DNA from: Myxococcales bacterium
Lineage (GTDB): Bacteria; Myxococcota_A; Polyangia; Nannocystales; Nannocystaceae
Reading direction: 5' to 3'
DNA: 64,000 nt
NCBI GenBank assembly: GCA_020633335.1
Contig: JACKDU010000002.1
Span: 250,730-314,729 of the forward strand
Below, one piece after another: positions 7,902-53,718 of this stretch. The first letter of the stretch is position 1; the number at the start of each line of letters is the position of its first letter. A program made the translations under genes and the position numbers. A model generated the notes under the pieces. That model saw nothing but the letters and a program-made list of their open reading frames with translations, did not search any database and was not told where the DNA came from.

Positions 7902-9240
7902 CAGGCTGCTGAGAAATGCGCGGCGCATCGCGTCGATAGCCGGCCGCGGTCCTTCCGAGACTCGGGAGGACACGTCCCCGCCGGCTCGCGCGCCCTTGCA
8001 GGGGGCCTTCACCGGGTCCCGAAGGCCGCGCTCTGCGGCCTCCGGGCCCCGGCCTCATGCGCTGCCGAGCAGGAGCTTGGCGATCCGCAGCAGGTTGTAC
8101 GAGGCGCCGACGAAGAGCGCCGCCATCTCCGTACGCTCTCGGCCCCGAAGCCTTGTCCTCCGGAAGTGGCCGACCGTCTTGTCCCAGCCGAAGATCTCTT
8201 CGACTCGCTTTCGCACCCGCTGAGAGACCGTGTAGCCCTCATGACGCGAGGTCCGCCCGTCGATCGCCGAGCCGCCGCAGTGCTTGGTGTTCATGGCGAC
8301 ATGCGGGGTGATCTTCAGCTCGCGGCAGCGCGCGACGAAGGCTCGCGTGTCGTATCCCTTGTCGGCCGCGAGCGTGCGTCGGTTCCTCGTCGGTGCGAGC
8401 CGCCCGATCATCGTCGCCGCGGCCTCGACCTCTGCGCGCCCGTGGGCGTGCGTCACCACCAGATCGACGATGAGGCCGTTGCGGTTCTCCATCAGCACGT
8501 GCTTCGCGTAGGAGAGCTTGGCCTCCTTCCCAAAGCCCTTGCGGGCCAGCCGTGCGTCGGGATCCGTCGTCGATGCGTGGGTCTCGTTGCGCCGCTTCTG
8601 GCCGTGGAAGTTGACGGTCGGATTGCGCGAGCCGTCGCTCGCGGGGCGCTCCTCGGCCGACTCGTCCTTCGGCCGAAAGCTCTTCAGCGACGCCCACGCC
8701 TCGACCAGCGTCCCGTCCACCGTGAAGTGCTCGCTGCTCGTGAGCTTCTCGGCGTTCGCCTTGGCGACCACCGCGGCGAAGAAGCTCCGCGCGACGTCGT
8801 GGTCCATCAGCCGCTCGCGGTTCTTGCTGAACGTCGTCGGGTGAAACGCGCCCTCGGTCATGTCCATGTCGAGGAACCAGCGGAAGAGCATGTTGTAGTC
8901 GAGCTGCTCGCAGAACATCCGGTCGCTGCGCACCGAATAGAGGGCCATCAGCACCGTCGCCTTGAGTAGCGACTCCGGTGGGATCGAAGGCCGGCCGACG
9001 GCCGCGTACATCTCATCGAAGAGCGGCGACATCTCCCGGAGGATCCCGTCGACGAGCGTCTTCACCTCGCGGATCGGGTGCCGCTGCGGGATCCGACTCT
9101 CGACGTCGACAAGGCAGACAAGGGAGGTCTGGGGGTCCTTCGCGCCGCGCATACGACGGTTGTACGAAATCGCGCGTCGGTCGCGAAGACCCGAAGTGAG
9201 CTCGGCTGCGTGTGGTTACGCAGGGTTTTTCAGCAACCTG
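7902..9240 (-). mobile_element. IS5-family insertion sequence (1339 bp) with 4-bp CTAG target-site duplication
   Basis: Imperfect terminal inverted repeats caggctgctgagaaat (7902-) and caggttgctgaaaaa (reverse complement of 9226-9240). CTAG directly abuts both ends (7898-7901 and 9241-9244), matching the YTAR target preference of the IS5 group. Single intact transposase ORF. Confidence 0.8.
8055..9152 (-). CDS. IS5-family DDE transposase
   Basis: 365-aa DDE_Tnp_1-type protein (…LIVDLVVTHAHGRAEVEAAA…LAADKGYDTRAF…EEIFGWDKTVGHFRRTRLRGRER…LLRIAKLL), typical of the IS5/IS1031 group. Confidence 0.85.
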   Translation of the reverse strand: MRGAKDPQTSLVCLVDVESRIPQRHPIREVKTLVDGILREMSPLFDEMYAAVGRPSIPPESLLKATVLMALYSVRSDRMFCEQLDYNMLFRWFLDMDMTEGAFHPTTFSKNRERLMDHDVARSFFAAVVAKANAEKLTSSEHFTVDGTLVEAWASLKSFRPKDESAEERPASDGSRNPTVNFHGQKRRNETHASTTDPDARLARKGFGKEAKLSYAKHVLMENRNGLIVDLVVTHAHGRAEVEAAATMIGRLAPTRNRRTLAADKGYDTRAFVARCRELKITPHVAMNTKHCGGSAIDGRTSRHEGYTVSQRVRKRVEEIFGWDKTVGHFRRTRLRGRERTEMAALFVGASYNLLRIAKLLLGSA

Positions 9241-12842: not shown

Positions 12843-13571
12843 ATGAAAAAGACCCCGCAAGGCCTCCTGATCGCCCTCCTGCTCGCCCCGCCCCTCACCC
12901 TCGGGGCCGCCTGCGGGAGCCCGCCGCCGGCCGCCGACGCGCCCCAGGCCCCGAGCGTGGCCGGGGCCCCCGAGGCGGCGCCCGCCCCCGCCGAGGCCCC
13001 GGGGGCCCCGGAGGCGAAGGCGGACAACCGCGTCCTCGCCGACTCCGGCCTCGGGGTGGGTGGCAAGCTCCGCGCCTTCCAGATCACCAACTGCGAGAGC
13101 GGCGAGGAGTACTGCCAGGTCTGCCGCTACGGCGCCTCGCCCAAGATCATGGCGGTCGGCGACCTCGACGACCCCGCGTTTCGGACCGACCTCCAGAACA
13201 TCGACGCCGTGGTCAAGAAGTACGGCGAGGACAAGCTCAAGGCCTTCGGCGTGATCGCCGAGATCCACGACGGCAAGGGCCTCACCCCGAAGGAGGGGCG
13301 CGAGGAGCTGATCGCCAAGGTCAAGGCGATGCGCGAGGAGCTCGGGATCACGATCCCGGTGGTCGTCCCAGCCCTCGAGGAGGGCGGCGGCAACGAGGCC
13401 TTCGACGGCTACTACAACATCACCAAGAGCCGGACGCTGATGTTCGCCGACAGCCGCAACGCGGTCCGCTACTCGGCGACCGCGCCCAGCGATCTCGCCG
13501 GGCTCAACGCGGCGATCGTCGAGGTGCTCGGCGGCGGCAGCGGAGCCGCGGACGCGCCGGCCGAGGGCTAG
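12843..13571 (+). CDS. lipoprotein, function unknown
   Basis: Signal peptide plus lipobox LTLGAAC. Pro/Ala-rich linker. CxxxxxxC…CQVC cysteine cluster. Stop lies inside an 18-bp tandem duplication. Confidence 0.55.
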   Translation: MKKTPQGLLIALLLAPPLTLGAACGSPPPAADAPQAPSVAGAPEAAPAPAEAPGAPEAKADNRVLADSGLGVGGKLRAFQITNCESGEEYCQVCRYGASPKIMAVGDLDDPAFRTDLQNIDAVVKKYGEDKLKAFGVIAEIHDGKGLTPKEGREELIAKVKAMREELGITIPVVVPALEEGGGNEAFDGYYNITKSRTLMFADSRNAVRYSATAPSDLAGLNAAIVEVLGGGSGAADAPAEG

Positions 13572-14005: not shown

Positions 14006-14905
14006 TCAGGGCAGCAGGTAGGGGCTCGCCGGCGGCGGCGACCACCCCGGGAGCTCCTGGAGGACGAAGATCAGCCGGATGACGGCCGCGGCGGCGAAGA
14101 GCGCGAGCGGGACGATCGCCACCAGGATCCCGCGGAGCAGGGAGATCCGGTGGGTGCCGGCGAGCGCGCGCGCGAGCTGACGGAAGAAGAGCCCGGACAT
14201 CAGCCCGAAGACGACGAGGTAGTAGGGGAAGCTCCCGGCCACGCCGAGGTAGAGCGGGAGCTCGGCGAGCGAGAGGACCGCCAGCGGGGCCGCCATCGCG
14301 TAGCCGGTCGCCCGCATCGACGCGGCGATCGAGCGCGGCGCGCCGCCGGTGAGGGCGAGGGCGACGTGGGTCAGGAGCCCGCCGAAGAAGTAGAGGAGCG
14401 GCAGGCCGATCGGCACCATGAGGAGGATCCAGACCCCCAGGACCTCGACCAGGTGGGGATCCAGGACGTCGTCGATCGGCCGGACGACGAACTCCTCGCC
14501 CGCTCCGAGCGCCGCCCGCAGGCCGAGGACGACGACGGTGACCAGCCACACCGGGATCCGCACGGTGTAGAGGAACGCCAGGATCGAGCTGTGCGCGACC
14601 GGCTCCTGGACGTCGGCGAAGCTCTCCCGCGGCCGACGGAGGAGCGCCCAGAGGGTGCGAATCACCCGCCAGCGCCACCCCGGGAGCTCGTCCTCGTCGT
14701 CGCGCGCACCCGCCGCCCTCCGCGGCTGACGCGGCCATTCGACGGGGAGGGCGCTCCAGAGCACCCCCTCGTCGGCGAGGAGGCGCTCGCCGACGGCGCG
14801 GCGGCGGGCGGCCCGATCGCGTGGCGGAGTGGCGGAGGTCACGGCGGCGGGAGCATACCCGACCTGCGCCGGCGATGGGGGTTCACAGGTGAAGGTCGCC
14901 CGCAT
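14006..14905 (-). CDS. Yip1-family integral membrane protein
   Basis: WRWRVIRTLWALLRRPRESFADV N-terminal motif followed by about five hydrophobic helices. The start may be internal, since the N-terminal ~60 aa are R/P-rich. Confidence 0.5.
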   Translation of the reverse strand: MRATFTCEPPSPAQVGYAPAAVTSATPPRDRAARRRAVGERLLADEGVLWSALPVEWPRQPRRAAGARDDEDELPGWRWRVIRTLWALLRRPRESFADVQEPVAHSSILAFLYTVRIPVWLVTVVVLGLRAALGAGEEFVVRPIDDVLDPHLVEVLGVWILLMVPIGLPLLYFFGGLLTHVALALTGGAPRSIAASMRATGYAMAAPLAVLSLAELPLYLGVAGSFPYYLVVFGLMSGLFFRQLARALAGTHRISLLRGILVAIVPLALFAAAAVIRLIFVLQELPGWSPPPASPYLLP

Positions 14906-14916
14906 ACCCTTGCCCC

Positions 14917-15615
14917 ATGGTCCCGCCCCGTCGTGGCCCGGCTCCCCTGCCCTCTGCGGCGCGCCTCGTCGTCGTCGGCGTCCTGACGGCCACCGCAGCC
15001 CTCGGCTGCCGACCCCGCGATGGGCTCCCGCAGCACTACGACGATCCCGACGCGATGATCGTCCAGTTCGAGCGGGACGATCGCGACGCCTGGGCGATGC
15101 CCGATCGCGTGGTCCGGGCGCTGGCGATCGACGCCAAGGACGCGGTCGTCGCCGACATCGGCGCGGGCTCGGGTTACTTCACCCGCCGCCTCGCCCGCGA
15201 GGTGCCGGCCGGCCTGGTCTACGCGGTCGACATCGACGATCGCTTCCACGCCTACATCGAGAAGAACCGCGAGGCCTGGGGGACCCCGAACATCGAGCCC
15301 CGCCTCGCGTTCTATGACGATCCTGCGCTCCCCGAGGCCGGCGTCGACCTCGTCTTCATGTCCAACACCTACCCCTACCTCAAGGATCGCGTCGCCTACC
15401 TCAAGAAGGTGCGGGCGGTCCTCCGGCCCGGGGGGCGCCTGGCGATCGTCGGCTTCCGCGAGGACGCCAACGTCCCGGGCGACGACGCACCTGACCCAAA
15501 GTACAGGATCCCGCAGGCGACGGTGATCTCCGAGGCCGAGGCCGCCGGCTTCACCCTCGACCGCGAGGAGACCTTCCTCCCCTACCAGCACTTCCTGATC
15601 TTCCGGGTCCGCTGA
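14917..15615 (+). CDS. class I SAM-dependent methyltransferase, exported (probable lipoprotein)
   Basis: Motif I VADIGAGSGYFT. Signal peptide with LGC lipobox. 33 bp upstream of the cyclase gene. Confidence 0.65.
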   Translation: MVPPRRGPAPLPSAARLVVVGVLTATAALGCRPRDGLPQHYDDPDAMIVQFERDDRDAWAMPDRVVRALAIDAKDAVVADIGAGSGYFTRRLAREVPAGLVYAVDIDDRFHAYIEKNREAWGTPNIEPRLAFYDDPALPEAGVDLVFMSNTYPYLKDRVAYLKKVRAVLRPGGRLAIVGFREDANVPGDDAPDPKYRIPQATVISEAEAAGFTLDREETFLPYQHFLIFRVR

Positions 15616-15648
15616 GCCCTCCCGCCGGACCCCCCAGGAGCGAGCCCC

Positions 15649-17700
15649 GTGACCACCACGACCTCCGCGGCCGCGAGCGCCGCGCCCTCGGCGACGCCGA
15701 ACGACGACCTCCACGCCCGCGCCGCCGACGCCTACGCCCGCGCCCTCGATCACCTCCGCGCCGTCCAGCAGCCGAAGGGCGCGCTCGCGGGCGAGGTGAT
15801 CTGGAACCCGATGCTCATCTGCCAGTACGTGATGGCGATGAAGCTCCTCGGCCAGCCGATCGCCGACGATCGGCGCCGGCGGATCCGCCTCAGCTTGGAG
15901 CGCCAGGTCCGACCCGACGGCGGCTGGGGGATGCACCCCGACTCCGAGTCCTACCTCTTCCACACGACCCTCGCCTACGTCGCCCTCCGCCTCCTCGGCC
16001 ACCCGCCCGAGGACCCGCTCGCGGCCGCCGCCCTCCGCTGGATCCACAACCACGGCGGGCCGCTGGTGCTGCCGACCTGGGGGCGGATCTGGCTCGCGCT
16101 CCTCGGCCTCTACCCGTGGGAGAGCGTGCAGGCGATCGTCCCCGAGATCTGGCTCCTGCCGGAGGCCTCGCCCTTCCACCCGCGGCGCCTCTACTGCCAC
16201 ATGCGCCTGATCTACCTCGGGCTCTCCTTCGTCTACGGCAGCCGCCTCCAGGCCGACGAGGACGGGCTGCTGCGGGCGATCCGTGACGAGCTCTACCCCG
16301 AGGGCTACGCCGCCGCGCCCTTCGAGCGCTACCGCGACACGATCGCGGTCACCGACCTCTACGAGGCGCCGGGCGTCGGCCTCCGGACCGCCTTCGCCGG
16401 CCTCCGCCTCGTCGATCGCCTGAGCCCGAAGCTCCTCCGCCGACGCGCGCTCGATCGGGCCTTCGATCAGATCCTCTTCGAGCTCCGCTCGACCGCCTAC
16501 GTCTGCCTCTCGCCGGTCAACGGCCTCCTCTTCACGCTCGCGCTCTTCGCCCGCGATCGTCGGCACCCCGAGCTGCCGGCGGCGATCCGCGGCCTCGAGT
16601 ACTGGGTGTGGGAGGACGAGGTCGACGGCATGCGGATCGCCGGCGCGCGCTCCGACATCTGGGACACCGCCTTCGCCCTCCAGGCACTCGCCGAGGGGCC
16701 CCGCTCCGAGACCGCCGCGGCGATCGCCGAGGACGCGTGCCGCTGGCTGCCCACCGCCCAGATGCGCGCCGACGTCCCCGACGGCGCCCGCCACTTCCGC
16801 TCGCCGGCGGCCGGCGGCTGGGGCTTCGCCGACGAGCACCACCCCTGGCCGGTCTCCGACTGCACCGCCGAGGCGATGGAGGGGCTGCTGCGAGCGGCCG
16901 ACGCCGGCCTGGTCGAAGGGCCAGGTCTCCCGAAGGACCGAGCCCTGGCGGCGATCCGCTTCGTCCTCGGCCGGCAGAACGACGACGGCGGCTTCGGCTC
17001 CTACGAGGCCCGCCGCGGGTCGATGGTGATCCGCCACTTTAACCCGGCGGAGATCTACGGCAACTGCATGCTCGAGTACTCCTACGCCGAGTGCACGGCG
17101 TCCTGCGTCCGCGGCCTCGCCTACGCCCGCGATCGCCTGGGCGACGCGCTCCCCCGCGGCCTCGCCCGCGAGGTCGAGGGGGCGATCGAGCGCGGCGTCG
17201 CCTTCCTCCTCAAGGCCCAGGACGCGGGCGGCGGCTGGGCGGGCTTCTGGGGGGTCAACTTCACCTACGGGACCTTCTTCGTCGCCGGCGCCCTGCGGGC
17301 CTGCGGCCTCGATCCCCACCACCCCGCGCTCCGCCGGGCCTGCCGCTGGCTCTGCCGGGCGCAGCGCCCCGACGGCGGCTGGGGCGAGGACTTCCGCGGC
17401 GTCCTCGACGGCAGCGACGTCCGCCTCCCGCCCGAGGAGCCGAGCCTGGTCACCCAGAGCGCCTGGGCGCTCCTCGCCCTGATGGCCGCGGCCCCGGCCG
17501 AGGACGCCGACGCCGCGCGGGCGATCGAGCGCGGGATCGCCTTCGTCAGCGGCCGCCAGGGCCCCGACGGCGCCTGGCCGCGCGAGCGCGCGAGCGGCGT
17601 CTTCTTCAACACCGCGGTCCTCGACTACGACCTCTACCGCCAGATCTTCCCGGCCTGGGCGCTCGCCCGCTACCTCGGCGAGCACTCGGCCGAGGGCTGA
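15649..17700 (+). CDS. 2,3-oxidosqualene cyclase (lanosterol/cycloartenol synthase family)
   Basis: Catalytic motif GGWGFADEHHPWPVSDCTAEAMEG (DCTAE, characteristic of oxidosqualene cyclases, versus DxDDTA in squalene-hopene cyclases). Multiple QW repeats (RQNDDGGFGSY, QRPDGGWGEDF, GRQGPDGAWP, KAQDAGGGWAGFWG). 683 aa. Confidence 0.85.
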   Translation: MTTTTSAAASAAPSATPNDDLHARAADAYARALDHLRAVQQPKGALAGEVIWNPMLICQYVMAMKLLGQPIADDRRRRIRLSLERQVRPDGGWGMHPDSESYLFHTTLAYVALRLLGHPPEDPLAAAALRWIHNHGGPLVLPTWGRIWLALLGLYPWESVQAIVPEIWLLPEASPFHPRRLYCHMRLIYLGLSFVYGSRLQADEDGLLRAIRDELYPEGYAAAPFERYRDTIAVTDLYEAPGVGLRTAFAGLRLVDRLSPKLLRRRALDRAFDQILFELRSTAYVCLSPVNGLLFTLALFARDRRHPELPAAIRGLEYWVWEDEVDGMRIAGARSDIWDTAFALQALAEGPRSETAAAIAEDACRWLPTAQMRADVPDGARHFRSPAAGGWGFADEHHPWPVSDCTAEAMEGLLRAADAGLVEGPGLPKDRALAAIRFVLGRQNDDGGFGSYEARRGSMVIRHFNPAEIYGNCMLEYSYAECTASCVRGLAYARDRLGDALPRGLAREVEGAIERGVAFLLKAQDAGGGWAGFWGVNFTYGTFFVAGALRACGLDPHHPALRRACRWLCRAQRPDGGWGEDFRGVLDGSDVRLPPEEPSLVTQSAWALLALMAAAPAEDADAARAIERGIAFVSGRQGPDGAWPRERASGVFFNTAVLDYDLYRQIFPAWALARYLGEHSAEG

Positions 17701-49045: not shown

Positions 49046-50119
49046 TCACTCGCCCGCGCTCTCGGCCGCAGCCGCCGCGCCGCCGCTGTCGCCCGCGCCC
49101 TCGGCGGCAGCCCCCTCGCCGCGCTGGCCGAGGCGATCGAAGCGGAGGTTGCTGGCGTCGCGCACCAGGTCGCCAAACTCGGCGAGCACCTTGTCGACCT
49201 CCGCCCGGCCCGCGTCGCCGCCGCGGATCCGCCCGAGGAGCGCCCGCGCGGCCGTGAAGTACTCGTCGGCGCTGGTGATGAAGTGATCGAACCAGAAGAC
49301 CCGCGCCCCCTCGTCGGGGTGGGCCTCGAGGTAGGCGTGGAGCTCGCCGTGGGCCTCCTCGAGGGTGAAGTAGGCGGCCTCGCAGGCGCTCGTGGGCCCC
49401 TCGCCGAGGCACTGGATCAGCGGCCGCGAGCGCATCACGAAGGCCCGGCTCTGGTACTCGAGCCCGCGACCGGAGCGCCGCTCGATCCGCTCGAGCACCG
49501 CGGTGTCGACCCGCTCCTGGCTGGCGGCGATCTCGATCCCGAGGCCCTCGGCGGCCGCGACCCAGGCGTCGTAGGCCGAGACCAGCGCGCTCCGCTCCGC
49601 GCTCAGGCGCTCGCGGGTCGCCGGGTCCGGCTGGCCGCGGTGGGTCGCCAGCGCGTCGATCGATGCGAGCGCCGCCGCCAGGCGCTCGCGGTAGGCGGTC
49701 AGCGCGTCGACGTAGGCGGCCGTCTTGGCCTCGAGATCAGCCTGCGGCGGCTGGAGGTGGGGCCCCTCCTTCCGGGCCTTCATGCAGCGCTCGACCCCCT
49801 GCTCGGGGATCGGCCCCAGCTCCTCGCGCGGCTCCTTGGTCCGCGGGATCCCGCCCTCGTCGACCCGCGCGAGGTAGAGGCGCTGGCGCTCGCGGACCGC
49901 GGCGTCGGTCGCCCGGGCGCACTCGATGTAGAGGCCGAGCTTGTTGGCGAGGAGCTCCGGCTGGGCGACGGCCGCGCCCGGGGCGTCGACCTCCTCTTTC
50001 TTGAGCTTGTCCTTGATCGTCTCCTCGAGCGCGTCCTTGATCTGCGCCGAGGTGTCCTGGGTGCAGGCGCCCCCGAGGATGCCCCCCACCACCGCAAATA
50101 CGCCAAAGAACCGCATCAT
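49046..50119 (-). CDS. lipoprotein, function unknown
   Basis: MMRFFGVFAVVGGILGGAC lipobox. Helical, Ala/Glu-rich. Confidence 0.5.
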   Translation of the reverse strand: MMRFFGVFAVVGGILGGACTQDTSAQIKDALEETIKDKLKKEEVDAPGAAVAQPELLANKLGLYIECARATDAAVRERQRLYLARVDEGGIPRTKEPREELGPIPEQGVERCMKARKEGPHLQPPQADLEAKTAAYVDALTAYRERLAAALASIDALATHRGQPDPATRERLSAERSALVSAYDAWVAAAEGLGIEIAASQERVDTAVLERIERRSGRGLEYQSRAFVMRSRPLIQCLGEGPTSACEAAYFTLEEAHGELHAYLEAHPDEGARVFWFDHFITSADEYFTAARALLGRIRGGDAGRAEVDKVLAEFGDLVRDASNLRFDRLGQRGEGAAAEGAGDSGGAAAAAESAGE

Positions 50120-50151
50120 CGCCGCCACACCACGTTGCCACGCGCCCCCGC

Positions 50152-51195
50152 CTAGATCCAGTGGGGATCGGCGGGGACGATGATCCTGAGGTAGTGGAAG
50201 AGGTTCTCGACCCGGTAGTGGTCGGCGTAGTGGAACTCCTCGCCGTCGAGCTGGGCGTAGAGCCGGCGGATCCGCGGCGAGCGGTAGATCCGGACCTCGA
50301 TCTCCTTGCCCGCCGGGATCTCCGGGCGGCCGAGGCCGAGGACGGCGAGGTCGTCGCGGGTCAGCGGGTTGCGCTTGTGGGCCGTGATCGTCGCCGCCAT
50401 CCAGTCGGCGTGGCCGCGCATCACCACGACCTCGAAGCGGCCGTCGTCGGGCTTGGCGTCGGGCGCGAAGATCCAGTCGCCGCCGTAGAGGAGCGTCCCC
50501 TTGACGACGATGTCGGTGACCCCGCTGTACTCGTGGCAGACCCCGTCGATCGTCACCGCGGCGGCGAAGCGCGAGCGGCCGACCAGCGAGCGGAAGTAGC
50601 TGGCGAAGGCCGCCCGGACGTAGACCGCCTTGTCGCGGTAGACCCGGCGGAAGACCGGCACCCGGGCGACCCGCTCGCGGTCGCGGTTGCGGCGGGCGAG
50701 GATCTGGGCCGAGAGCCCGACCCCCCAGGAGTCGAACCAGAGGTCCTGGAGGACCACCTCGCCGCCCTCGTCGAAGGCCGAGACCCGGCCGACGTCGAGC
50801 CACTGCTCGATCCCCTCGGCGATGATCTCGACGTTGCGATCGATCGCCTTGACCCCGGCCATCACCCCGAAGGAGCGCCCCTGATCGTTGGCGGTGCCCA
50901 TCGGCAGCATCCCCATCGGCACGTCGACGCCGGCGCGCTCGCGGGCCAAAATGATCCCCTTGGCGGTCTCGGCGAAGGTCCCGTCGCCGCCGAGGTAGAT
51001 CACCCGGGCGACGTCGCCGACCTCGAGGCGCTCGGCCAGCGCCGGCACCGTCGCCCCGCCCGGGAGCGTGGCGAAGAGCTCGGGCTCCAGGCGGCGCCGC
51101 TCGAGGGCGTCCATCGCCCGGCGGATCGCCGCCGCTGCCTTGCCGGTGCGGGCGGTCGGGTTGCCGACGAGGAGAGAGACGCGGGGCCTCGGCAC
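50152..51195 (-). CDS. diacylglycerol kinase catalytic-domain family lipid kinase (YegS/BmrU-like)
   Basis: VSLLVGNPTARTGK N-terminus and GGDGT motif (VIYLGGDGTFAETAKG). GTG start. The 1258-aa ORF upstream extension is artefact. Confidence 0.7.
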   Translation of the reverse strand: MPRPRVSLLVGNPTARTGKAAAAIRRAMDALERRRLEPELFATLPGGATVPALAERLEVGDVARVIYLGGDGTFAETAKGIILARERAGVDVPMGMLPMGTANDQGRSFGVMAGVKAIDRNVEIIAEGIEQWLDVGRVSAFDEGGEVVLQDLWFDSWGVGLSAQILARRNRDRERVARVPVFRRVYRDKAVYVRAAFASYFRSLVGRSRFAAAVTIDGVCHEYSGVTDIVVKGTLLYGGDWIFAPDAKPDDGRFEVVVMRGHADWMAATITAHKRNPLTRDDLAVLGLGRPEIPAGKEIEVRIYRSPRIRRLYAQLDGEEFHYADHYRVENLFHYLRIIVPADPHWI

Positions 51196-51432
51196 GGTGG
51201 GCCAGGGTATCACTTGTCTCCGGGGCGGGGGCCCTGGGCCGAGGGCCGGCGGCCACACGCCTGGATCGCCGCAGAGCGGCCGTCCTCGGCGGCCATTCTC
51301 GGGCCTGGGGCGCGACCCCGGCCCTCGGGCGCGCGCCCCCACCGGACCGCGATCACACGCGCGGCACCGCACGACGCATCGCCCGCGAAACCCGCCCCAC
51401 CCTCGCTCGAATCTGATACCCCCGACACCACC

Positions 51433-53718
51433 ATGCGCGCCGCCCTCTGCACCCTCCTCCCCCGCGCCTCCCTCGTCACCGCCCTCGCGCTCGCCTGCGT
51501 GAGCGCCTGCGCGACGACGGGCGACGGCGCGAGCCCTTCGACCCCGCCCCCCGCGACCGCTGACGGCGCCCAGGGGGGCGCCCAGGCGGCGACCGGCGGC
51601 TTTGAGAACCAGGGCGGGATGTGGATGCCGCAGCAGCTCGCCAGCCACGTCGATGAGCTCAAGAAGGCCGGCTTCGCCCTCGATCCCGCGGTCCTCACCG
51701 ACCCGACCGCCTTCCCGCTCGGCGCGGTCGTCAGCCTCGGCGGCTGCTCGGCGTCCTTCGTCTCGCCCGAGGGGCTGATCATCACCAACCACCACTGCGT
51801 GACCGGCTACCTCCAGCACAACTCGACCCCGCAGGCGAACCTCCTCGAGAAGGGCTACCTCGCGCGGACCCGGGCCGACGAGCGCTCCGGCGGGCCGACC
51901 AAGCGGGTCTACGTCACCCGCGCCTTCACCCGGGTCACCGACCGGGTCCTCGGCGGCCTCGACAACGTCGCCGGCGGCGAGCGCTACAAGACGATCTCCG
52001 ACCGCCGCAAGGAGATCGTCGGCGAGTGCGAGCGCGCCCACGAGAACACCCGCTGCCAGGTCGCCAGCTTCTACGAGGGCGCCGAGTACTACCAGATCGA
52101 GCAGCTCGAGATCCGCGACGTCCGCCTGGTCTACGCCCCGGACGCGGGGATCGGCGTCTTCGGCGGCGAGATCGACAACTGGCGGTGGCCCCGGCACACC
52201 GGCGACTACTCCTTCCTCCGCGCCTACGTCGGCCCCGACGGCAAGCCCGCGGACTACTCCGAGAAGAACGTCCCCTTCCAGCCGCAGCACCACCTCCGGG
52301 TCGCCCAGGAGCCGACCCGCGCCGGTGACTTCGTGATGGTCGCCGGCTACCCCGGCCGGACCTCGCGCCTGAAGACCGCCGCCGAGGTCCAGGAGGCCGC
52401 GAGCTGGTACTACCCGCGGCAGATCGCGATGTACGAGGAGTACATCGCCACCCTCGAGGCGGCCAGCCAGGGGCGCCCGGAGATCGGGATCAAGGCGGCC
52501 GGGCGCCTCCGCGGCCTCAACAACTACCTGACCAACTTCAAGGGGATGCTCGACGGCCTGGTGAAGGGCAAGCTCGCCGACGAGCGGGTCAAGATCGAGG
52601 GCGAGCTCCAGGCCTGGATCGACGCCGACGCCCAGCGCAAGGCGAAGTACGGCGACGTCCTCGCGGCGATGGCCAAGCTCGACGCCGAGGAGTCGACCAC
52701 CCGCGAGCGCGACATGGCCCACGGCGAGGTGATCCGGGCGTCGGCGCTCCTGCGGACCGCCCAGCGGATCCTCAAGATGGCCGACGAGCGCGGCAAGCCC
52801 GACGAGAAGCGCGCCCCCGGCTACCAGAAGCGCGACCTCGGCGATCTCGAGCAGGAGATGATCGCCATGCAGTCGTCCTTCGATCCCGAGCTCGACCGCG
52901 CGGTCCTCCGCCTCTTCCTCACCCGCGCCGCCCGCCTCCCCGAGGCCGATCGTCCGGCCGTCCTGGCGACCATCGTCGACGCCGCGACGATCGACGACGC
53001 GGCGATCGACAAGGCCCTCGACCGCCTCTACAAGGGGACCAAGCTCGGCGATCCCAAGGTCCGGGTGAAGCTCCTCAAGAGCGCGAGCGCGGCCTCGCTC
53101 AAGTCGAGCAAAGATCCCTTCATCCGCCTGGCGATCGCCCTCCAGCCCGAGGTCGACGCCTACGACAAGCGCCAGGAGGAGCGCGCGGGGGCGATGGCCG
53201 CCCTCCGGCCGCGCTACATCGCCGCCCTCCGCGAGAAGAACGGCGACATCGCCCCCGACGCCAACTCGACCCTGCGGGTCACCTTCGGCACCGTCCGCGG
53301 CTACCGCCCGCGCCCCGAGGCGCCGATCTACCGCCCCTTCACCACCCTCTCGGAGATGCTCGCCAAGCACACCGGCGAGGAGCCCTTCAACGCGCCGCCC
53401 GAGCTCCTCGAGGCCGCCCGCGCCCGCAAGGTCGGGCCCTACGTCGACGAGGTCCTCGGCGAGGTCCCGGTCAACTACCTCGCCGACCTCGACATCACCG
53501 GCGGCAACTCGGGCTCGGCGACCCTCAACGCCCGCGGCGAGCTCGTCGGCCTGGTCTTCGACGGCAACTACGAGGCGATGGCCTCGGACTGGCTCTTCAT
53601 CCCCGAGATCACCCGGTCGATCCACGTCGACATCCGCTACATCCTCTGGATCATGGACGCGGTCGACGGCGCCGAGCACCTGATGCAGGAGATGGGGGTC
53701 ACGCCGGCGATCGACTGA
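51433..53718 (+). CDS. S46-family dipeptidyl-peptidase (DPP7/DPP11-like), lipoprotein
   Basis: Signal peptide plus Cys. GCSASFVSPEGLIITNHHCV (catalytic His region), GGNSGSA (catalytic Ser, GxSGS). 761 aa. Confidence 0.8.
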   Translation: MRAALCTLLPRASLVTALALACVSACATTGDGASPSTPPPATADGAQGGAQAATGGFENQGGMWMPQQLASHVDELKKAGFALDPAVLTDPTAFPLGAVVSLGGCSASFVSPEGLIITNHHCVTGYLQHNSTPQANLLEKGYLARTRADERSGGPTKRVYVTRAFTRVTDRVLGGLDNVAGGERYKTISDRRKEIVGECERAHENTRCQVASFYEGAEYYQIEQLEIRDVRLVYAPDAGIGVFGGEIDNWRWPRHTGDYSFLRAYVGPDGKPADYSEKNVPFQPQHHLRVAQEPTRAGDFVMVAGYPGRTSRLKTAAEVQEAASWYYPRQIAMYEEYIATLEAASQGRPEIGIKAAGRLRGLNNYLTNFKGMLDGLVKGKLADERVKIEGELQAWIDADAQRKAKYGDVLAAMAKLDAEESTTRERDMAHGEVIRASALLRTAQRILKMADERGKPDEKRAPGYQKRDLGDLEQEMIAMQSSFDPELDRAVLRLFLTRAARLPEADRPAVLATIVDAATIDDAAIDKALDRLYKGTKLGDPKVRVKLLKSASAASLKSSKDPFIRLAIALQPEVDAYDKRQEERAGAMAALRPRYIAALREKNGDIAPDANSTLRVTFGTVRGYRPRPEAPIYRPFTTLSEMLAKHTGEEPFNAPPELLEAARARKVGPYVDEVLGEVPVNYLADLDITGGNSGSATLNARGELVGLVFDGNYEAMASDWLFIPEITRSIHVDIRYILWIMDAVDGAEHLMQEMGVTPAID

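Follow-up and report, generated by a model that had tools for sequence, protein, structure and literature searches.

The gene analysed here lies at positions 15649..17700, on the forward strand, of a 64,000-nucleotide stretch of Myxococcales DNA (GenBank assembly GCA_020633335.1, contig JACKDU010000002.1, positions 250,730 to 314,729), which is called the window below and comes from an uncultured member of the Nannocystaceae. It codes for an oxidosqualene cyclase (OSC) of the lanosterol-synthase type. In the list of open reading frames (ORFs) the frame begins with a GTG codon and runs for 683 amino acids (aa), and reading of the sequence 5' of it reveals the ribosome-binding site AGGAG (15636..15640) 8 nucleotides (nt) from the GTG, within the 33-nt spacer that separates the OSC gene from a methyltransferase gene upstream. 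The GC content at third codon positions is 0.97, which is like that of the neighbouring genes, in a window with 70-75% GC.

The protein carries the sequence PVSDCTAEA, in which DCTAE starts at residue 404. When a motif search was combined with alignment to the human OSC, residues V402-S-D404-C405-T-A-E408 (16852..16872) were found to correspond to human V453-S-D455-C456-T-A-E459, and the motif search found no DxDD motif anywhere in the protein. An earlier, sequence-only reading of this locus had described a sterol-type cyclase with VSDCTAEA in place of the DxDDTA of squalene-hopene cyclases (SHCs) and with multiple QW motifs, and both descriptions are confirmed (the first motif occupies aa 402-408). 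Regular-expression matching identified three strict QW motifs, at aa 515-530 (RGVAFLLKAQDAGGGW; 17191..17238), aa 563-578 (RACRWLCRAQRPDGGW; 17335..17382) and aa 628-643 (RGIAFVSGRQGPDGAW; 17530..17577), as well as one core QxxxGxW motif, QVRPDGGW, at aa 86-93 (15904..15927). All of these features lie on the forward strand.

Family assignment and relatives of the cyclase

Both halves of the cyclase fold were recognised by Pfam, SQHop_cyclase_N (PF13249) with 188.6 bits and SQHop_cyclase_C (PF13243) with 196.5 bits, each well over its cutoff. The top NCBIfam model was TIGR03463 (osq_cycl, 2,3-oxidosqualene cyclase), with 711 bits and an E-value of 1e-213, and the model for squalene/oxidosqualene cyclases, TIGR01787, was matched with 487 bits and passed its cutoff of 323. 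The SHC model TIGR01507, on the other hand, gave 269 bits, which fails its cutoff of 431 and falls 442 bits under the OSC model. The best match in the PDB was human lanosterol synthase (1W6K; 405.9 bits, E 2.6e-120), compared to 189 bits for the SHC of A. acidocaldarius (1GSZ/2SQC). The protein is nearer to the eukaryotic OSCs than to the SHCs, in agreement with the earlier view that its sequence is close to eukaryotic lanosterol/cycloartenol synthases. Since the E-values reach 1e-213 for TIGR03463 and 1e-120 in the PDB, the family match cannot be due to chance. Identity to the Capsaspora Lss protein is 33% across 664 residues.

When 1.84 billion cluster representatives were searched exhaustively with HMMER, 4843 relatives came back. 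Among the best 150 of these, every sequence that covers the motif has DC[TS]xE, none has DxDD, and no SHC is included. The placement with OSCs rather than SHCs is thus a matter of profile scores and motifs, the tree described below being one of OSCs without an SHC outgroup. The sequence-only reading had pointed out that it would be wrong if the protein grouped with the SHCs despite its DCTAE motif; this is not borne out by the profile scores, by the motifs or by the best 150 of the 4843 relatives.

The protein is 100% identical to an NCBI entry, encoded on a 1.18-Mb contig, named "MAG: 2,3-oxidosqualene cyclase [Myxococcales bacterium]" (P0001), where MAG denotes a metagenome-assembled genome. 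The next 119 database matches have 59-74% identity, and the named ones come from Nannocystaceae or unclassified Myxococcota. In a scan with one genome per species, 48 Nannocystaceae loci were found at 57-73% identity, after which identity drops to 34%; the loci include those of Nannocystis exedens DSM 71, N. pusilla, N. punicea, N. radixulma, N. bainbridge, Paraliomyxa miuraensis and Enhygromyxa MAGs. Clustering at 50% reduces the whole Nannocystaceae OSC clade to one representative, with the nearest outsiders at 47% identity or less. By its identity, its place in this single clade, its shared flanking genes and the lack of a detectable squalene epoxidase in the window, the protein is a member of the Osc clade of Nannocystaceae. 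The gene is an ordinary lanosterol-type cyclase of that family, is already annotated in NCBI, and is in this sense already known.

The wider relationships were examined with a midpoint-rooted neighbour-joining tree of 75 representative OSC domains. The tree divides cleanly into two groups, and the query falls into the one with 32 members, all of which share a one-residue deletion (GAx-S) and 31 of which have Val at the position of human residue 453. The other group has 43 members, 42 of them without the deletion, and holds Capsaspora along with cycloartenol-type sequences that have Ile453. The nearest relatives from outside the Nannocystaceae (44-47% identity), one of which is named as a lanosterol synthase, bear the same GAx-S ... 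H.WPVSDCTAE signature as the query; the corresponding signatures are GYNGSQ ... HGWPITDC in cycloartenol-type sequences and GTNGSQ ... CGWIVADC in Capsaspora. From its signature and from the literature, the 32-member group appears to match the lanosterol synthases that Wei et al. 2016 (PMC4919349) called "Group 1" and that are found only in bacteria. The OSCs of Gemmata, Methylococcus capsulatus and P. pacifica are placed basal to the eukaryotic OSCs (Wei et al. 2016, PMC4919349).

A side observation concerns six metagenomic relatives from outside the window (P0248, P0249, P0251, P0253, P0274 and P0264), in which the cyclase part is 38-46% identical to the query. Four of them (1092-1175 aa) consist of FAD_binding_3 and squalene epoxidase domains fused to an OSC, one (1022 aa) is a squalene/phytoene synthase fused to an OSC, and one (852 aa) has an N-terminal extension of about 210 aa that belongs to no assigned family. 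The term "fusion" does not occur in Hoshino & Gaucher 2021, the single paper checked for it.

Active site, product and pathway partners

Active-site residues were mapped by HMMER alignment to the human OSC, in which the numbering agrees at every known human residue. The catalytic residues are all retained, with D404, C405, C482, H184 and Y452 corresponding to human D455, C456, C533, H232 and Y503, as is the aromatic cage formed by W338, F393, W534, F652 and Y660 (human W387, F444, W581, F696 and Y704). V402 aligns to human V453, the bacterial lanosterol marker. Relative to the human enzyme, the query has Ala for T381 together with an adjacent one-residue deletion, His for C449, Tyr for W230 and Met for C233. 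Of 22 active-site and specificity positions compared over 128 aligned members of the clade, 19 show no variation at all and three show almost none. The catalytic and cage residues are invariant or nearly so, and A381, H449, V453 and the VSDCTAE motif are invariant across all 128, cultured genera included.

The comparison of product-specificity positions had been proposed as a check on the sequence-only reading, and its outcome is Val at 453 with Ala381 and His449 throughout the clade. In the bacteria tested by Wei et al. 2016 (PMC4919349), V453 versus I453 was the sole position that fully tracked lanosterol versus cycloartenol, and positions 381 and 449 were not conserved in bacterial OSCs (PMC4919349). 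The eukaryotic lanosterol-synthase pattern of T381 with C or Q at 449 is absent from the query, from the 128 clade members and from the nearest bacterial outgroups alike; it marks a eukaryotic subtype and not the bacterial lanosterol synthases.

Judged from its sequence, the gene is very probably the Nannocystaceae ortholog of bacterial lanosterol synthase (ERG7/LSS family), working in the manner of the human OSC. In this mechanism (3S)-2,3-oxidosqualene would be bound in the cavity between the two alpha/alpha-barrel domains, where Cys405 and Cys482 (human C456 and C533) would polarise Asp404 (D455), the general acid that protonates and opens the epoxide. W338, F393, W534, F652 and Y660 would stabilise the cationic intermediates on the way to the protosteryl cation, and once the hydride and methyl groups have shifted, loss of a proton to the His184/Tyr452 pair (H232/Y503) would give lanosterol. 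Val402 (V453), the residue that in bacterial OSCs goes with lanosterol and not with cycloartenol, would fit that product. Other Nannocystaceae have their squalene epoxidase and the later demethylases and reductases at separate places in the genome, and the same is expected here. The analysis shows the family, the orthology, the conserved residues and a window without detectable partner genes; the substrate, the lanosterol product and the remaining pathway are inferred.

A Pfam search of 40 ORFs found no squalene epoxidase (squalene monooxygenase), squalene/phytoene synthase, P450, Rieske oxygenase, C-4 demethylase or ERG-type gene in the 64 kb. The 40 ORFs make up most of the window, about ten of them being without a Pfam match and the short stretches between ORFs lying outside the scan, and the neighbours that could be named are housekeeping or regulatory genes. 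The sequence-only reading had likewise seen no squalene monooxygenase, CYP51 or C-4 demethylase gene here, and its suggestion that the partner genes may be unlinked agrees with what has been published for Nannocystaceae (PMC12004948; PMC10202945; PMC2817430), of which the unlinked Osc arrangement is a known property. An Osc of lanosterol type, located apart from Smo, occurs in all cultured Nannocystaceae, and the Nannocystaceae Osc is monophyletic and vertically inherited, with MAG sequences clustering with the cultured ones (bioRxiv 10.1101/2024.11.01.621555 = PMC12004948). The sterol genes of E. salina are scattered in the genome (PMC10202945), those of the nannosterol-producing Nannocystis are dispersed (PMC10152446), and ERG1 of P. 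pacifica adjoins a divergent SHC homolog and not ERG7 (Desmond & Gribaldo 2009, PMC2817430). As for the sterols themselves, those of cultured relatives derive from lanosterol: cholest-7- and cholest-8-enols in N. exedens, lanosterol and zymosterol in both E. salina and P. pacifica (PMC4919349), and in E. salina cholesterol too (PMC10202945).

For the OSCs of N. exedens and P. pacifica, Wei et al. 2016 (PMC4919349) give one set of locus tags in Table 2 and another in Table 4, which prompted the idea that Nannocystaceae have two OSC paralogs. This idea was rejected, given the position of the P. pacifica ERG1 beside an SHC homolog (PMC2817430) and the separation of Osc from Smo (PMC12004948). Table 4 lists "Las" genes next to squalene epoxidase, and these probably correspond to the divergent SHC homolog of Desmond & Gribaldo 2009.

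Several points weigh against the assignment as a lanosterol synthase. The 711 bits scored by the protein are under the curated TIGR03463 cutoff of 851. Positions 381 (Ala, with the deletion) and 449 (His) depart from T381/C,Q449, and in plants a His at 449 goes with the cycloartenol type. The product is called from residue 453 together with the lipids that cultured relatives make, and no assay of a close ortholog was found reported. A squalene epoxidase in the source organism is an assumption, the search having covered the 64-kb window alone. Finally, Corallococcus coralloides has squalene epoxidase and Osc yet no detectable sterols (PMC4919349), so the presence of the gene is no guarantee of sterol production. 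The sub-threshold TIGR03463 score was considered as a sign of divergence and rejected, all eight comparators having missed 851 as well: N. exedens (690), N. pusilla (686), Paraliomyxa (704), an Enhygromyxa MAG (688), two outgroups (680 and 746), a cycloartenol-type OSC from Chitinophagales (701) and even the eukaryotic Capsaspora Lss (684). Since all of the tested OSCs miss it, the cutoff does not discriminate real OSCs, and the shortfall reflects the calibration of the model and not divergence of the protein. The same cutoff is probably behind the inconsistent NCBI product names in the Nannocystaceae OSC clade.

It is extremely improbable that the protein is an SHC-type or other non-sterol triterpene cyclase with a DCTAE-like motif by chance. 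Its Pfam domains are common to SHCs and the SHC model does match it, but at 269 bits that match is far under 431, DxDD is absent, the best 150 representatives all have DC[TS]xE where the motif is covered, and the equivalents of Cys456, Cys533, His232 and Tyr503 are present. A main product such as cycloartenol, parkeol or an arborane-type triterpenol in place of lanosterol could be argued from the His at 449, as in plant cycloartenol synthases, and from Ala381 beside a deletion in place of Thr; moreover, the Gemmata OSC makes parkeol (PMC4919349), and reference lists in the sterol literature cite arborane triterpenol synthesis by a bacterial OSC. Such a product is nonetheless very unlikely, as A381, H449 and V453 are the same in every one of the 128 clade members, among them cultured Nannocystis, Paraliomyxa and Enhygromyxa, relatives of which make lanosterol-derived sterols (PMC4919349; PMC10202945). 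In addition, residue 453, the lone product predictor in tested bacteria, is Val in the query, and the cycloartenol-type sequences bear the distinct GYNGSQ...HGWPITDC signature. The combination of A381, the deletion and H449 was rejected as a sign of an unusual product, being invariant in the clade and common to the neighbouring bacterial lanosterol-type group, and the earlier suggestion that the product could be unusual is not supported. Lastly, the gene might be an intact but silent or functionless relic in an organism that makes no sterols, as reported for C. coralloides (PMC4919349), and no partner genes were found near the OSC. This too is highly improbable in view of the active site conserved over 128 orthologs and the intact ORF with host-like codon usage, and the family is reported to inherit Osc vertically along with demethylation genes (PMC12004948).

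The upstream methyltransferase and gene order

Directly upstream of the OSC gene, on the same strand, lies the gene for a 232-aa protein with a class I S-adenosylmethionine (SAM)-dependent methyltransferase fold and a lipoprotein-type signal (14917..15615). It stops 33 nt before the OSC start and has a lipobox-like Cys, as expected from the earlier description of an exported class I methyltransferase 33 bp upstream. Its domain matches are generic (Pfam Methyltransf_25, _11, _12, _31 and _23); no sterol-methyltransferase C-terminal domain (ERG6/SMT) was found in it, and no NCBIfam model matched at cutoff. In the PDB it is matched best by 3dh0 (E 7e-12), a class I SAM methyltransferase that is itself uncharacterised. 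All extracted orthologs have the N-terminal hydrophobic stretch with the lipobox-like Cys followed by a GPPQHYDDP motif. Among 120 database orthologs, 116 carry the lipobox Cys, and conservation of the SAM motif I (DIGAGSGYF) and of the VYAVD strand is at least 95%. The protein is thus conserved, and its sequence suggests that it is probably lipid-anchored by its signal and active. Many orthologs have RR directly before the hydrophobic stretch, a possible twin-arginine (Tat) signal. SAM is not known to occur outside the cytoplasm, which makes an exported SAM-dependent enzyme odd. This methyltransferase is the only element of the locus that was not found described.

Transcribed divergently from the methyltransferase is the gene for a 299-aa membrane protein with about five hydrophobic segments (14006..14905, reverse strand), recognised by synteny and a hydropathy scan. 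With Pfam at E<=1, no family was found for this membrane protein, and nothing useful for a lipoprotein-like ORF at 12843-13571 or for two other neighbours. The order common to most loci is PmbA/TldD, lipoprotein-like ORF, membrane protein, methyltransferase, OSC, CNNM, M20 peptidase, ArgB and ArgC. In about 40 of the 48 Nannocystaceae loci the methyltransferase gene immediately precedes that of the OSC, the stop codon of the first often overlapping the start of the second, and the membrane protein adjoins the methyltransferase in all loci, that of N. pusilla included, so that this pair is conserved throughout the Nannocystaceae. Because the 33-nt spacer holds only the ribosome-binding site, the methyltransferase and OSC genes are likely to be co-transcribed. 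A scan for sigma-70 promoters around the operon found none, but shuffled sequence also gave zero, so that at 73% GC the scan carries no information; terminator-like matches number just two, both inside genes on the opposite strand.

The exceptions are found in Nannocystis. In N. pusilla the OSC lies 2.8 Mb from the methyltransferase on the same contig, and the lipoprotein ORF, membrane protein and methyltransferase remain together and are followed by TatD. In cultured Nannocystis (L003, L004, L033 and L051) the OSC has moved out of the ancestral neighbourhood and sits between a TetR-family regulator and a patatin-like phospholipase, with the pair of methyltransferase and membrane protein left behind and followed by TatD. 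In N. exedens DSM 71 (L003, 9218-13466) the TetR gene is on the same strand and in frame with the OSC, with no stop between them. The break in synteny falls exactly between methyltransferase and OSC, in the genus where sterols were first shown.

Could the adjacency reflect a shared function? The membrane protein, the lipoprotein methyltransferase and the OSC might form a functional module in which the methyltransferase modifies an envelope sterol or sterol conjugate. The conserved position of the methyltransferase upstream of the OSC (about 40 of 48 loci, down to 48% methyltransferase identity), the short spacer with its ribosome-binding site, and the conserved SAM motifs and lipobox can be read in this way, and no mention of a methyltransferase was found in the sterol literature that was checked for the term. 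Such a module is unlikely, however. In N. pusilla the methyltransferase and membrane protein stay paired with the OSC 2.8 Mb away beside TetR and patatin genes, and the functional link is weak on this account; the region is syntenic housekeeping DNA, in which adjacency could be inherited order. Furthermore, the methyltransferase is without the sterol-methyltransferase C-terminal domain and has only generic small-molecule methyltransferase matches, the literature consulted on Nannocystaceae sterols describes no extra methylation, and no SAM is known outside the cytoplasm. It is quite unlikely, given the broken adjacency in cultured Nannocystis and the generic type of the methyltransferase, that the methyltransferase and membrane protein form an undescribed envelope module that handles or methylates sterols outside the cytoplasm, with the enzyme exported in a cofactor-loaded state. 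The adjacency of methyltransferase and OSC is best read as inherited gene order.

Elsewhere in the window, an IS5-type transposase gene (DUF772 + DDE_Tnp_1; 8058-9215, reverse strand) lies between a UDG-family gene and the PmbA/TldD pair, in the stretch of lowest GC in the window (0.677, compared to 0.70-0.75 elsewhere). A 1225-codon open frame on the forward strand (50041-53715) has a Peptidase_S46 domain from residue 525; either it has a long N-terminal region of no assigned family or its true start is far downstream. No tRNA genes and no Rfam families at the gathering threshold were found across the 64 kb (1-64000).

Significance and comparison with known cyclases

Bacterial sterol synthesis bears on the reading of sterane biomarkers and on the debated question of whether the sterol genes of eukaryotes came from myxobacteria. 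The present locus adds nothing new to either question, being one further Nannocystaceae copy from an uncultured source. Its modest value is that it gives one more example of the gene order that surrounded Osc ancestrally in the family, the lipoprotein methyltransferase included.

The enzyme can be compared with four kinds of relatives. Human lanosterol synthase (1W6K) shares its fold, the residues D455, C456, C533, H232 and Y503, the five cage residues and V453; the query differs in being without about 50 N-terminal residues, and its identity to eukaryotic OSCs is only about one-third. The SHC of A. acidocaldarius (1GSZ/2SQC) belongs to the same superfamily and has the same two-barrel architecture and QW motifs, but the query has DCTAE in place of the DxDD of SHCs and scores 189 bits against this enzyme compared to 406 for the human OSC. 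With the Group 1 enzymes of Wei et al. 2016 the query shares Val453 and the bacterial-only type. The closest likeness is to the Osc proteins of the Nannocystaceae themselves (N. exedens, N. pusilla, E. salina, P. pacifica and P. miuraensis), with 57-74% full-length identity, the same catalytic and specificity residues, the same flanking genes in most loci, and the separation from squalene epoxidase that has been published for the family. No functional difference sets the query apart from these proteins, its source being simply an uncultured MAG. Where it does differ from cultured Nannocystis is in gene order, since the query locus keeps the lipoprotein methyltransferase directly upstream of the cyclase, which is probably the ancestral arrangement.

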